A stretch of 64,000 nt of DNA from Candidatus Parcubacteria bacterium (GTDB taxonomy: Bacteria; Patescibacteriota; Minisyncoccia; Minisyncoccales; JAGMDC01). Under the pieces are notes generated by a model. That model ran no database searches. It was not told where the DNA came from and saw nothing but the letters and a program-made list of their open reading frames with translations. Positions 23,758 through 26,036 of the stretch are shown piece by piece. A program made the position numbers and the translations under genes. Numbering within the stretch: the first letter of the stretch is position 1; each line of letters begins with the position of its first letter. The stretch covers positions 43,364 to 107,363 of the forward strand of contig JAGLYZ010000002.1 of the NCBI GenBank assembly GCA_023131895.1. The letters run 5' to 3'.

Positions 23758-23970
23758 TACCCTTTCATCATACTAAATATACAACCTTTTGTCAATAAAA
23801 ATCGTCCAACGATGGACTCTTTTATTTACTAGACCTCTCAGTGGCCTGCACTGAGCTTGTCGAAGTGCTGGCAACATCGGTCTAGAACTCGTATTTTAAG
23901 GGGAAAATTGGGGCTTTTTAGAGTGTCTCATTGACGTGTCTCAGTCAGGGCGTTTTGTTCAGGAAATGAG

Positions 23971-24012
23971 ACAAATGAGACACTACTTAAGGGTATATTT
24001 GAGTGTCTCAAA
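23971..24012. repeat. 42-bp repeat copy A containing the palindrome TGAGACAC-N19-GTGTCTCA
   Basis: acaaatgagacactacttaagggtatatttGAgtgtctcaaa. It differs at 2 positions from the copy at 25995-26036. Extra GTGTCTCA/TGAGACA copies lie at 23923-30, 23936-43 and 23967-73. Confidence 0.85.
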
Positions 24013-24259
24013 ATCTATGATTGTCCAAGTCCTGAAGAATTTTAAGGTCCGCCTTACCAATCCTAAATTTCGGGGGAGTTTTACTCCTCTCAAATTTTTT
24101 AAATTTATGTTTCAGTGTTTGGGTTTATTTTCTAAAATTACTGTGTCGTAATCTTTACTTAAATCGTCCACCTCAAAAGACAGCCCTACATCAAAATTAT
24201 CCTTTCTTATTTCAGCTCCGTTTCTGTTAATTATCTTTTTTACTGGCAACGTTCAGTTC

Positions 24260-24502
24260 TTAACCCTTATATTTTCTCGGATCTGCTCCGTAAGTATGTT
24301 CTGTCTGAATTTTGCCAGTTCTTCCGTGTATTTTTATCTGGCTTGGTTCTTGCTTTCTTGCAATTCCCCGGGCTTTTTTAATTGCTTTTTCTTTATTTTC
24401 AAACACAGCAATCGGTTGTTTGTTTCCTTCTTTGGTTATCTTCCAGTCTTTTACCCCTCCTTTTTTATTTGGAGTAATATGAATTACTAGCCTTTTAGAC
24501 AT
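24260..24502 (-). CDS. DUF2188 family small protein
   Basis: WKITKEGNKQPIAVFENKEKAIKKARGIARKQEPSQIKIHGRTGKIQTEHTYGADP matches the DUF2188 pattern as I remember it. Confidence 0.65.
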   Translation of the reverse strand: MSKRLVIHITPNKKGGVKDWKITKEGNKQPIAVFENKEKAIKKARGIARKQEPSQIKIHGRTGKIQTEHTYGADPRKYKG

Positions 24503-24598
24503 AATAATTATTTCCTTTGATTAAGATTATTTGAGGTCGACCTTTATAAATTATCTTTAGCAAAATATCTCAATTCACTAAACTGAGATATCTTTAAT

Positions 24599-25762
24599 CT
24601 ACTTAATAATCCCTCCTTCTTTTTCTATTGTTTTCATTTTATCCTTTATCCCCTCCTCTAATTTTTTATATTTATCCCAAGTAAGCAACCAAACCAAGGC
24701 AATGGAATCAATGGCATCAGCCAAAATATAAATACTAATTTTATCAAGTTTATCTTTATACTCTGAATCTTCTAAAATTTTCATTTTTTCATATTCTTGT
24801 TTCTTAATGCCTTCCGGAATAAAATCAGTGGAAATTAAATAAGAAACAAAACAAACCGCTTTGACATAATCATATATCTTTTTGTTCCCCTTGCCTAAAA
24901 TTTTCTTATCAGCAAGTTTTCCTTTAACTTTTTCTATTTCCCACTTTCTTTTACTTAATTCATCTATTACTCCATAGAGAAAAGATTCTTTGAACTTTTC
25001 TTTCAGCTTTTTATTTTTAATAAACTCAGGCGCACCATCAATATCATAATCAAAAACATCTCTTTTTTTATCAAATTCGTAAAATTTTATTATTTCTTTA
25101 TCCCAGTATTTCTCCATATCTGGATGAATAGTTGAGGGTCCATAAAAGTCTCTATCATCGCAATGCGGCGGCACATGAGCGTCAGATAAATAATGACTTA
25201 ACATTAAGAAATAAAGCGCTATTTGATTATCATTGAACATAATATTGGAACCTTTTGGCTCCTTTTTTTGAATCAAAACCATATCTCTAATAGCGTGAGA
25301 TAGGGCCTCACATCTATCAGGAAGCACATATTTAGACTTTCTGCAGACTTTTTCTTTAAGTCTGGATTCATTAATTCCAAGTTTTCTCAACGAACACAAA
25401 TGATTCGGTGTTCGATTCTTGAATTCTTTAGCTTCTTTTCTTTCTTTCCTTGTTGACGGTTTTTTAAGTTTAAAGGTATGCCCGCCAGTGAGGTTATCAG
25501 AAATAACGTTGTCCGGAAACCAAGCCCCTTTAAGAAATGCATCTTTGTGTTTATCAAAAAATTTCACAAAGCTTTCAGCTTGTTTTTTAAAATGATCGTC
25601 AAAATCGTCGCCGAGAAAATAGCCCCTGAAATTTTTACCAAGAAAACTCCGCCTAAAAGATTTATATCTTTTAGGCCCCTTTAATCTTTCTAGGGCCATT
25701 AAGGCTAGCCAAGCATGAGCTATTTTTTTCATGTTTATTAATATCCTACCATCTATCTCCAC
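24599..25762 (-). CDS. zinc-dependent phospholipase C / S1-P1 nuclease superfamily-like hydrolase
   Basis: Ordered candidate metal ligands are HAWLAL (N-terminus), GAWFPD, GGHTF, LSHYLSDAHVPPH (HxxxDxxxxxH) and IHPDME (HxxxE). The start may be MKKIAHAW at 25732. Confidence 0.55.
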   Translation of the reverse strand: MEIDGRILINMKKIAHAWLALMALERLKGPKRYKSFRRSFLGKNFRGYFLGDDFDDHFKKQAESFVKFFDKHKDAFLKGAWFPDNVISDNLTGGHTFKLKKPSTRKERKEAKEFKNRTPNHLCSLRKLGINESRLKEKVCRKSKYVLPDRCEALSHAIRDMVLIQKKEPKGSNIMFNDNQIALYFLMLSHYLSDAHVPPHCDDRDFYGPSTIHPDMEKYWDKEIIKFYEFDKKRDVFDYDIDGAPEFIKNKKLKEKFKESFLYGVIDELSKRKWEIEKVKGKLADKKILGKGNKKIYDYVKAVCFVSYLISTDFIPEGIKKQEYEKMKILEDSEYKDKLDKISIYILADAIDSIALVWLLTWDKYKKLEEGIKDKMKTIEKEGGIIK

Positions 25763-25994
25763 AACTTAATACATAGTAGTAAATTGTAGTAAATTTTCAG
25801 GATTTTTTAGTTTGATATATTAATAATGGAGTTGGCAATAATACCTTCTGAGATACCACTTATGGGTTCCACTTGCGGGTGTGGTAAATACACCTTAGAA
25901 CCTAAAATAGAGATATTTTGAGAGGTTTTTGTATATTTTTAGAAATTCCTAATGCCTCTATGTCAGTCTTTATGCTTTATATCAAAATTATAGC

Positions 25995-26036
25995 ACAAAT
26001 GAGACACTACTTAAGGGTATATTTTCGTGTCTCAAA
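25995..26036. repeat. 42-bp repeat copy B (TGAGACAC-N19-GTGTCTCA)
   Basis: acaaatgagacactacttaagggtatatttTCgtgtctcaaa. Confidence 0.85.

Follow-up and report, generated by a model that had tools for sequence, protein, structure and literature searches.

In 64,000 nucleotides of DNA from a Candidatus Parcubacteria bacterium (contig JAGLYZ010000002.1; this whole stretch is called the window, and all coordinates are counted within it), two 42-bp direct repeats, DR1 and DR2, lie in a gene island downstream of a tRNA-Gln gene. These repeats are most likely marks of recombination junctions, as opposed to private operators of the island. More specifically, and with about even confidence, we propose that they are attachment (att)-type cassette-boundary modules of islands that accrete at tRNA-Gln, where short repeats with a GAGAC core would serve as putative accessory sites for a recombinase acting in trans.

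DR1 (23971-24012) and DR2 (25995-26036) differ at 2 positions, a pairing that none of 100 shuffled sequences produced, and both hold TGAGACAC-N19-GTGTCTCA. The 8-mer GTGTCTCA/TGAGACAC occurs seven times in the 64 kb, counting both strands, where 0.48 copies are expected and the shuffle maximum was 2; six of the seven sit in two intergenic gaps, at 23923-24010 and 26000-26034. Additional 8-mers are located at 23923-23930 and 23936-23943, along with a 7-mer, TGAGACA, at 23967-23973, and the repeat-bearing gaps measure 502 bp (23758-24259) and 305 bp (25763-26067). An earlier interpretation of this DNA from its letters alone, the sequence-only reading, had described the near-identical pair with its paired 8-mers, three extra 8- or 7-mer copies at 23923-23973 and gaps of about 500 and 305 bp, all of which was borne out by the counts, the shuffles and the coordinates. 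It had also placed a DUF2188 gene and a Zn-hydrolase gene between the repeats; the first assignment stands (Pfam E=6e-19), but the second could not be verified. All genes of the region are on the minus strand, in the order dnaX, tRNA-Gln, four open reading frames (ORFs) of 73, 785, 192 and 60 amino acids (aa), a UvrD/GajB-like helicase, DR2, a 387-aa ORF, DUF2188, DR1, a terminator and promoter, a DEAD-box helicase and BipA. On this strand TTTGT... follows each palindrome, and at DR1 a third half-site, absent from DR2, and T-rich sequence follow as well. Together with the sites beside it, DR1 forms an array of five GAGAC-core sites whose layout is conserved in a subfamily of related loci (L107, L160, L111 and L131). 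No more than these two copies of the element are present in the 64 kb, both within the island.

The motif is not private to this island. When metagenomes were scanned with the pattern AAATGAGACAC-N19-GTGTCTCA, at least 120 loci matched (family counts below are among the matches listed), against fewer than ~10 expected by chance according to our own estimate, and the hosts are very different genomes with contig GC contents of 0.28-0.60. The sequence-only reading had considered that the 42-mer might turn out to be a common dispersed repeat unrelated to the island: common and dispersed it is, but unrelated it is not, because the motif is a hallmark of such islands. In these loci a conserved non-coding module of about 85-190 bp begins on its left with the palindrome. 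Along the gene strand a complete module has, in this order, AAATGAGACAC-N19-GTGTCTCATTT, tandem copies of GTCTCATTT (one to four), a short spacer, a conserved unit of ~85 nt and a mimic of a tRNA 3' end made up of a T-arm-like hairpin, an acceptor-like strand and GC(C)A. Conservation reaches beyond the letters of the search pattern, as TTTGTCTCATTT (the third half-site, usual after the palindrome), the spacer and the unit known here as unit A are conserved outside it. Up to four tandem 9-bp units are found in L176. The half-sites are followed by an A-rich stretch resembling a -10, beyond which the module takes one of three forms; the commonest of these, variant A (CCCYGACYGAGAC...CCCCTTAAAA...GGTTCnAGACCGAGGnnGCCAGCA), follows DR1; unit A also occurs without the palindrome in the relatives L218, L215, L217 and L221. 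A micro-ORF in unit A (MRHxKKPQFSP) was discarded as a candidate, being not maintained across homologues.

A strict regular expression for the tRNA-3' mimic matched downstream of 32 of 120 copies and upstream of none. Within a subfamily alignment, conservation begins sharply at the left arm of the palindrome and stops ~165 nt further on, at CAGC(C)A, with unrelated flanks on either side. The 19-nt spacer is subfamily-specific and is most similar between copies of one genome; therefore, the copies have spread as whole units, not as binding sites that evolved independently of one another.

The repeats appear to behave as DNA sites recognised by a protein rather than as hairpins. Among 19 diverged copies found with hidden Markov models, changes in one arm were never compensated in the other, and several diverged copies, in which the left arm is dispensable, keep only GTGTCTCA-TTT-GTCTCA. 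Rfam (15) matched nothing at the repeats in the window and ten related loci, either at gathering thresholds or at E<=5, ARAGORN called no tRNA or transfer-messenger RNA (tmRNA) at the element, and RNAalifold applied to 25 variant-A sequences returned one 4-bp helix with no covariation. The missing compensation and the lack of a conserved RNA structure together argue for sequence-specific recognition sites. The palindromes were also not among the terminator-like sites, having a 19-nt loop and 4 G-C pairs in an 8-11-bp stem, where an intrinsic terminator has a GC-rich stem, a loop of 3-8 nt and a U-run; canonical terminators lie elsewhere, at 23804-23817 and 31623-31641. The sequence-only reading had likewise judged the loop too long for a standard terminator, which agrees with these data; its further statement that no T-run follows holds for the plus strand only, because the genes here are all on the minus strand and TTTGT... 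follows there.

The element occupies a characteristic position. It typically starts between -2 and 100 nt past the stop codon of the upstream gene, which is co-oriented with it in 84 of 107 copies and whose stop codon in 12 cases is the TGA of TGAGACAC; the upstream genes are of diverse kinds, and those after the element tend to be housekeeping genes. At 11 loci, including the window, a same-strand tRNA-Gln gene lies 3.1-8.4 kb upstream of the element, and tRNA-Gln makes up 10 of the ~19 tRNAs near elements in metagenome and viral loci. The 65 ORFs in the intervals between tRNA-Gln and element belong mostly to restriction-modification (R-M) systems, five of them LexA-methyltransferase fusions, and also include ThsB-TIR, GIY-YIG and Abi genes, with contents that differ from locus to locus; no tyrosine integrase or recombinase recurs in the intervals or near the element. 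In the close relative L221 (DnaX 91% identical) synteny upstream of dnaX is unchanged, and YjbQ, Fpg and two small genes lie between tRNA-Gln and a palindrome-less unit A; L223 (83% identical) holds yet another defence island. Since the two differ in content, the interval after tRNA-Gln is a variable hotspot.

Related loci reveal where pieces of such islands were joined. A ~20-nt linker and GACYGAG follow tRNA-Gln in most of the 11 loci, with the C/T variant matching the post-palindrome variant of the same locus, and the order of tRNA end, linker and GACYGAG is seen after tRNA-Gln in L116, L144, L146, L160 and L199. In the window, two 45-nt copies of a degenerate repeat flank the island; their local alignment scores 32, and the best of 1000 shuffles reached 30. 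In L144, 35 bp reading CAGCCA-CCTTGAGCGCAGTTCTnGCGACCGAGACG (CAGCCA, linker and GACCGAGACG) are present at both island ends, after tRNA-Gln and after the pseudo-tRNA end, and a further genuine partial tRNA-Gln follows the repeat; CAGCCATCACATGCTAAGTCAGGTGACYGAG is common to L160, where it stands after the element, and to the window, where it stands after the tRNA. The contigs L226, L227, L228 and L229 have identical sequence across a DUF4238 gene and the complete element as far as '...CACAGAGC' / '...GGGGCACAGAGC', beyond which they diverge. Relative to L226, L228 has one additional cassette, with a single 140-aa gene and, at its end, another tRNA-3'-like sequence (GGTTCGAATAGCGTCCGTCCCCCGGAGC); past this cassette L228 matches L226 again. 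Genuine partial copies of tRNA-Gln occur in L144 and L228. In L232, AbiEii, a 232-aa ORF and HEPN_AbiU2 lie between two element copies whose ~185 bp, left arm through pseudo-tRNA end, are 88% identical, an arrangement that mirrors the bracketed module of the window. After the first of these copies come the linker, GACCGAG and the hairpin GCCCAGCAATAAGCTGGG, a sequence also present after tRNA-Gln in the window; in L232 it forms the conserved left end of a cassette. Taken together, L144, L160, L226-L229, L232 and the window repeat therefore delineate cassettes that start on the left with a conserved linker-GACYGAG-terminator and finish on the right with an equally recognisable conserved stretch of palindrome, unit and tRNA mimic, and sequence comparison puts the junctions at the 3' end of the tRNA or pseudo-tRNA.

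In the model that we propose, cassettes composed mostly of defence genes would accumulate downstream of tRNA-Gln, each incoming piece starting with the linker, GACYGAG and a terminator and ending in the module, with the junction falling at the 3' end of the tRNA or pseudo-tRNA. What the sequences show is the element family, its make-up, its position, its association with tRNA-Gln and the breakpoints in related loci; what we infer is that the joining is site-specific recombination, which kind of protein binds the sites, and that the DR2/DR1 pair arose through insertion of the 2-kb module. Read along the minus strand, the window would thus be composed of tRNA-Gln, a five-gene cargo, DR2, the 387-aa and DUF2188 genes, DR1 with unit A and the pseudo-tRNA end, what was originally the downstream flank of the tRNA, and the DEAD-box helicase gene. 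The GAGAC-core repeats would be bound in trans by an accessory or directionality factor of the recombinase, or by the recombinase itself, in analogy to arm-type or accessory sites beside an att core. Sequence downstream of DR2 shows no significant relation to unit A, and DR2 is therefore taken to be a truncated module fused to a promoter, which would be a strong one serving the 2-kb module. In attP arm-type or accessory sites (lambda Int/Xis) and in resolvase res sites, one short motif is repeated in direct and inverted orientation within ~100 bp beside the crossover, and the tandem head-to-tail repeats resemble Xis sites. TGTCTCATT resembles the resolvase half-site consensus, TGTCYNNTA; in res sites such half-sites are inverted and make up three subsites beside a resolvase gene. 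We know of no characterised system that has the spacings of the element (19-21 bp between inverted 9-mers and a 9-bp tandem period).

Several observations weigh against this model. The T-arm/acceptor part of the pseudo-tRNA is only ~60% identical (by hand count) to the 3' end of the resident tRNA-Gln. The region downstream of DR2 has no significant similarity to that downstream of DR1, neither unit A nor a pseudo-tRNA end being demonstrable at DR2, so that DR2 as a complete module was rejected; if junctions lie at the tRNA mimic, the origin of DR2 needs an extra step, for instance a deletion or recombination between palindromes. The sequence-only reading had offered as one option that the repeats are recombination or duplication scars of a 2-kb insertion and had predicted an empty site with one repeat copy. 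The first idea is favoured in spirit, since the element separates cassettes and variants break at the tRNA-like end in related loci, but neither an empty site nor a single-copy variant of the 2-kb module was found: exact-protein look-ups recovered only identical copies of the locus, and in more distant relatives the neighbourhoods are rearranged. No recombinase matched among the 7 island ORFs, a search that covered these ORFs and not the rest of the genome, and large serine recombinases are present in only 2 of the 11 tRNA-Gln islands. Finally, many copies follow ordinary housekeeping genes, and one contig (Ga0114930_10000039) has five in 39 kb, so that defence islands are not the only setting in which the element occurs.

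The best-surviving alternative, which we consider rather unlikely as an account of the element but compatible with the att-type proposal as an added role, is a promoter/operator module in which the palindrome and the tandem GTCTCA form an operator, for a DNA-binding regulator, that covers the -35 and spacer of an extended -10 promoter. The 387-aa/DUF2188 operon of the window would then be under the control of DR2, and transcription of unit A under that of DR1. The end of DR2 overlaps a perfect extended -10, TGcTATAAT, and a good -10 hexamer lies 16-17 nt past the palindrome in ~22 of 117 copies (~19%), 10 of them with TGn, although the remaining ~80%, DR1 among them, have no convincing -10 at this fixed offset. 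Operator function cannot explain the whole family. L218 and L221 have the same promoter (TTGTGCTAAAAT / TGTGTTAAAAT) ahead of unit A but no palindrome there, and in the phage-like contig L213 an element with TGaTACAAT stands upstream of a NUDIX gene. The half-sites, moreover, behave as independent sequence-specific sites, but the conserved spacer and ~100 nt of downstream sequence travel with them as a unit, which is unexpected for independently kept operators, and the location of the element is linked to breakpoints and to where the upstream gene ends. A family of 60-aa proteins is encoded one to three genes upstream of the element, on the same strand, in 7 of 7 independent contexts; the window island has no helix-turn-helix (HTH) or ribbon-helix-helix protein and no regulator was found there, and the 60-aa protein is modelled as a plain two-helix hairpin. 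The suggestion of the sequence-only reading that the repeats are operators for an island-encoded regulator finds some support in the protein-site-like half-sites, the DR2 promoter and the co-occurring 60-aa family; against it, no regulator was identified and the 60-aa protein shows no DNA-binding fold. Operator function for DR2 in particular is plausible.

The contig L213 (IMGVR_UViG_3300020195_001307) repeats itself with a 9,117-bp period, identical over >5 kb, which means that it either contains a long repeat or was assembled as a concatemer of a small circular element. Its genes include those for terminase subunits, a ParB-methylase, a ribonucleotide reductase and the NUDIX protein, and it has one element copy, the one upstream of NUDIX.

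An improbable alternative would class the element as a dispersed repeat, selfish or structural, of the repetitive extragenic palindromic (REP)/bacterial interspersed mosaic element (BIME) type or the miniature inverted-repeat transposable element type with its transposase elsewhere, or a generic 3'-end terminator or mRNA-stabilising hairpin, with no part in island assembly. Its copies and host genomes are numerous, several copies can share a contig (L094, L180 and Ga0114930_10000039, with its five), and as with REP/BIME elements these are short, multicopy extragenic palindromes just downstream of genes, a site past the stop codon being typical of REP. REP/BIME elements are hairpins of 20-40 nt kept up by compensation, with a GTAG/CGTC head, many copies and a RAYT gene. 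However, the element has no GTAG/CGTC head, its loop is long and conserved, its stem changes are uncompensated and the left arm can be lost, it has few local copies (two in 64 kb, both in the island), it is spread over very different genomes and the module ends without terminal inverted repeats; the tRNA-Gln bias and the junctions would be left unexplained. For a hairpin of terminator type, the gene strand does offer an 11-bp stem between an A-tract and a T-tract, like a bidirectional terminator, but terminators do not typically have a loop of 19 nt.

A structured non-coding RNA (a riboswitch-like leader, small RNA or tRNA-like RNA, with the palindrome as its hairpin) is very improbable, for although the module can have a promoter before and a terminator after it (L096, L165, L132 and L218), ends like a tRNA and in the DR1 region folds somewhat better than shuffled sequences (z=-2.6), Rfam and ARAGORN gave no sign of a known RNA family, tRNA or tmRNA at the repeats, the 25 homologues yielded just the short helix without covariation, the palindrome lacks compensatory changes and the tRNA-like 3' strand has no acceptor-stem partner.

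The att-type reading has counterparts in known systems. In Prochlorococcus, tycheposon islands of flexible and defence genes are seeded by one specific tRNA, their insertions are separated by partial tRNAs, most lack an integrase, and accretion moves older material distally (Hackl et al., 10.1101/2020.12.28.424599). The window-type islands are likewise seeded by one specific tRNA and mostly free of integrase, but they differ in having a host from the candidate phyla radiation (CPR), tRNA-Gln as the tRNA and a diverged tRNA mimic inside a ~165-bp module with a palindrome/iteron array; no tyrosine recombinase was seen here, large serine recombinases being the only enriched type. In Dehalococcoides, islands at ssrA use a CcrB-type serine recombinase and insert near the T-loop/3' end of a tRNA-like gene; they are tandem, with short direct repeats that have extra conserved sequence alongside, and many lack an integration module ('cis-mobilizable') (PMC3146451). 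The frequent absence of an integrase is shared with the islands described here, as would be, on the att-type reading, tandem accretion and boundary repeats with adjoining conserved sequence. Staphylococcal cassette chromosome (SCC) elements are comparable serine-recombinase (CcrB-type) islands. From both the ssrA islands and SCC, the present islands are set apart by their target, tRNA-Gln rather than ssrA or rlmH, by a much longer boundary module with 3-7 copies of an 8-bp motif and by the rarity of recombinase genes nearby. The imperfect palindrome at the 3' end of each cassette and the arrays of cassettes in one orientation recall integron attC sites; in contrast to integrons, there is no IntI, attI, Pc or R/L box, the sequence is highly conserved and the cassettes have their own promoters and terminators, and unlike attC the element shows no sign of single-strand folding, as there are no compensatory changes.

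Two kinds of protein recur near the element. Large serine recombinases, the only recombinase type enriched there, are encoded within four genes of it in 9 metagenome loci, and the viral contig L089 has one 27 nt upstream; small serine recombinases were not seen in the window island. The second kind is a family with 60-aa and 178-aa forms, the former represented in the window by the gene at 27936-28118. The long form combines a Zn-ribbon with a match to HTH_17 (excisionase-type) that is weak and below threshold, and its gene is divergent and adjoins the palindrome. The short form, 55-83% identical across 26 clusters, has no family assignment. Its model is a confident two-helix hairpin (predicted local distance difference test score, pLDDT, 89) that matched nothing at E<3 in a fold search, and the protein was rejected as a recognisable DNA-binding fold. 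A broader and unlikely version of the proposal is that CPR bacteria, whose genomes are tiny and contain few classical mobile elements, have an integron-like, recombinase-in-trans platform for defence cassettes at tRNA-Gln, in which each cassette would end in a site combining the tRNA mimic with GAGAC iterons and read by a dedicated protein, and in which the module would also give captured genes a terminator and a promoter. Candidate readers of the site would be the large serine recombinases, the Zn-ribbon/HTH_17 proteins and their 60-aa relatives.

In most cases an unannotated 160-207-aa ORF comes before the gene for the highly conserved 60-aa protein (in the window at 27936-28118, next to 28144-28722; also in L226, L232, L236, L155 and L188), and the gene after it is of defence type and varies (UvrD-like, HNH-like, protease, KAP NTPase or DUF4238).

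CPR bacteria, or Patescibacteria, make up a large share of bacterial diversity, are almost uncultured, and their gene exchange is poorly understood. If the proposal is right, an easily searched boundary module would provide a handle on their flexible gene pool in metagenomes and a concrete DNA site with which to identify the recombination or regulatory protein that reads it, and the model of tRNA-seeded island accretion from Prochlorococcus and Dehalococcoides would extend to another deep lineage. Were the element only a regulatory operator, it would still be among the first conserved cis-regulatory motifs defined for CPR. Rfam and the phage and plasmid collections hold no description of the element, and literature searches on the 8-mer and on CPR repeat elements yielded nothing specific; the module and its prevalence in CPR metagenomes appear to be new, while the proposed mechanism is of a known kind.

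Mobile-element collections were also searched. The element has no blastn match in INPHARED or PLSDB. An IMG/VR scan with the bare palindrome gave five loci, of which L085, with an identical 20-mer (AAATGAGACAAATGAGACAC) ahead of the N19 spacer, and L089 are true members and L087, L088 and probably L086 look like chance matches; the 20-mer is present in only 3 IMG/VR contigs. On the basis of the empty blastn searches and this scarcity, a phage or plasmid origin was rejected. L086 itself (GC 57%) has at 2876-3110 a dense cluster of ~12 GAGAC-core repeats, 6 of them exact GTGTCTCA, between a RepA/AAA_25-like gene and the next operon, probably an unrelated iteron/origin region that shares the 8-mer. 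The coordinates of the features in the window are collected in Table 1.

Table 1. Positions of the repeats, module parts, genes and signals of the tRNA-Gln island and its flanks
Feature	Position in window	Strand	Remarks
DEAD-box helicase promoter TTGACA-17-TATGAT	23767-23795	-	conserved housekeeping sequence starts at the 23767..23817 terminator/promoter block
Terminator	23804-23817	-	before DEAD-box helicase promoter
Island-flanking degenerate repeat, right copy (CAGCACTTCGACAAGCTCAGTGCAGGCCACTGAG...)	23826..23870	-	starts at pseudo-tRNA end
tRNA-3'-end mimic: T-arm-like GAGTTCTAGACC, acceptor-like GATGTTGCCA, GCA	23866..23890	-	cassette junctions map here in related loci
Unit A, ~85 nt, CCCTGACTGAGAC...CCCCTTAAAA...GAGTTCTAGACCGATGTTGCCAGCA	23866..23950	-	nhmmer varA model E=3.6e-32; 25-35 homologues aligned
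Array of five GAGAC-core sites	23923..24012	-	minus-strand layout -> N19 <- <- N19 -> ->, 90 bp; putative protein-binding iterons
DR1	23971..24012	-	minus-strand reading TTTGAGACAC-N19-GTGTCTCATTTGT; left end of full-length module; nhmmer core model E=7.5e-16
Genes of the bracketed 2-kb module	24260..25762	-	387-aa ORF and DUF2188
DUF2188 protein	24260-24502	-	Pfam E=6e-19; matches PADLOC candidate PDC-S16
387-aa ORF	24599-25762	-	probable start 25732
TGcTATAAT, perfect extended -10	25987..25995	-	overlaps DR2 end; faces 387-aa/DUF2188 genes
DR2	25995..26036	-	second 42-bp palindrome copy, 32 nt past stop of UvrD/GajB-like gene
UvrD/GajB-like helicase	26068-27909	-	proximal cargo (cargo span 26068..31487)
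60-aa ORF	27936-28118	-	proximal cargo
192-aa ORF	28144-28722	-	proximal cargo
785-aa ORF	28904-31261	-	proximal cargo
73-aa ORF	31266-31487	-	proximal cargo
Terminator hairpin GCCCAGCAATGAGCTGGGC and T-run	31623..31641	-	after tRNA-Gln linker
Island-flanking repeat, left copy	31633..31674	-	last tRNA-Gln bases, linker and GACTGAG
tRNA-Gln(UUG)	31669..31742	-	proximal anchor of the island, co-oriented with it

Homologues of the window proteins carry the names Minisyncoccales or Nealsonbacteria. The 387-aa protein matched nothing in Pfam, NCBIfam or PDB by sequence and has no IMG/VR relatives; with no such match and a single-sequence model that is unusable (pLDDT 35), the name Zn-hydrolase is unsupported. 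The promoter and 5' untranslated region of the DEAD-box helicase gene are conserved in the relatives L214, L217 and L218. This 5' leader (window 23721-23795; ~9900-10010 in the three relatives) contains a hairpin, ATGTCGC...GCGACAT, and translation of the helicase probably begins at position 23721, with the ATG that encodes M13 of the ORF as listed, which fits its relatives of 393-394 aa. The element as a regulator of the DEAD-box helicase was dismissed, as no motif cluster lies upstream of this gene at 80 GTDB-species helicase loci or in five close relatives.

Other observations concern related loci and more distant parts of the window. A LexA DNA-binding domain and S24 peptidase fused to a DNA methyltransferase (N6_N4 or C5) recurs in tRNA-Gln islands (L111:5494-6945, L144:2032-3609, L146:7953-9815, L236:3317-4855 and others), in some cases beside a restriction endonuclease such as MvaI/BcnI; such a fusion would be an SOS-type self-cleaving switch on a methylase. 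At L189:4804-5100, beside a large serine recombinase gene, a GTCTCA array is followed by a second array of a related motif (GTGTCCCATTTGTTCCATTT, TGTCCGAAAT), a pattern that suggests families of sites with shifted specificity. In one element copy of L232, unit A opens with 16 consecutive C (7600-7620), against 5 in the other copy (11425-11430), which may reflect a slippage-prone tract or an assembly artefact. A LOOT RNA (RF03000, 83.6 bits) lies at L149:2433-2561, ~10 kb from an element copy on the same contig. Within the window, a second defence- or toxin–antitoxin-like cluster occupies 11586-15281 (HATPase_c_2 with DUF4325, PF1765-like, AF1548-like and nucleotidyltransferase genes, according to the gene list of L001), and an 814-aa ORF at 42182-44626 (810 aa as called in L219) matches the DUF87 / T4SS-DNA_transf / TrwB coupling-protein families according to the precomputed Pfam list of L219.

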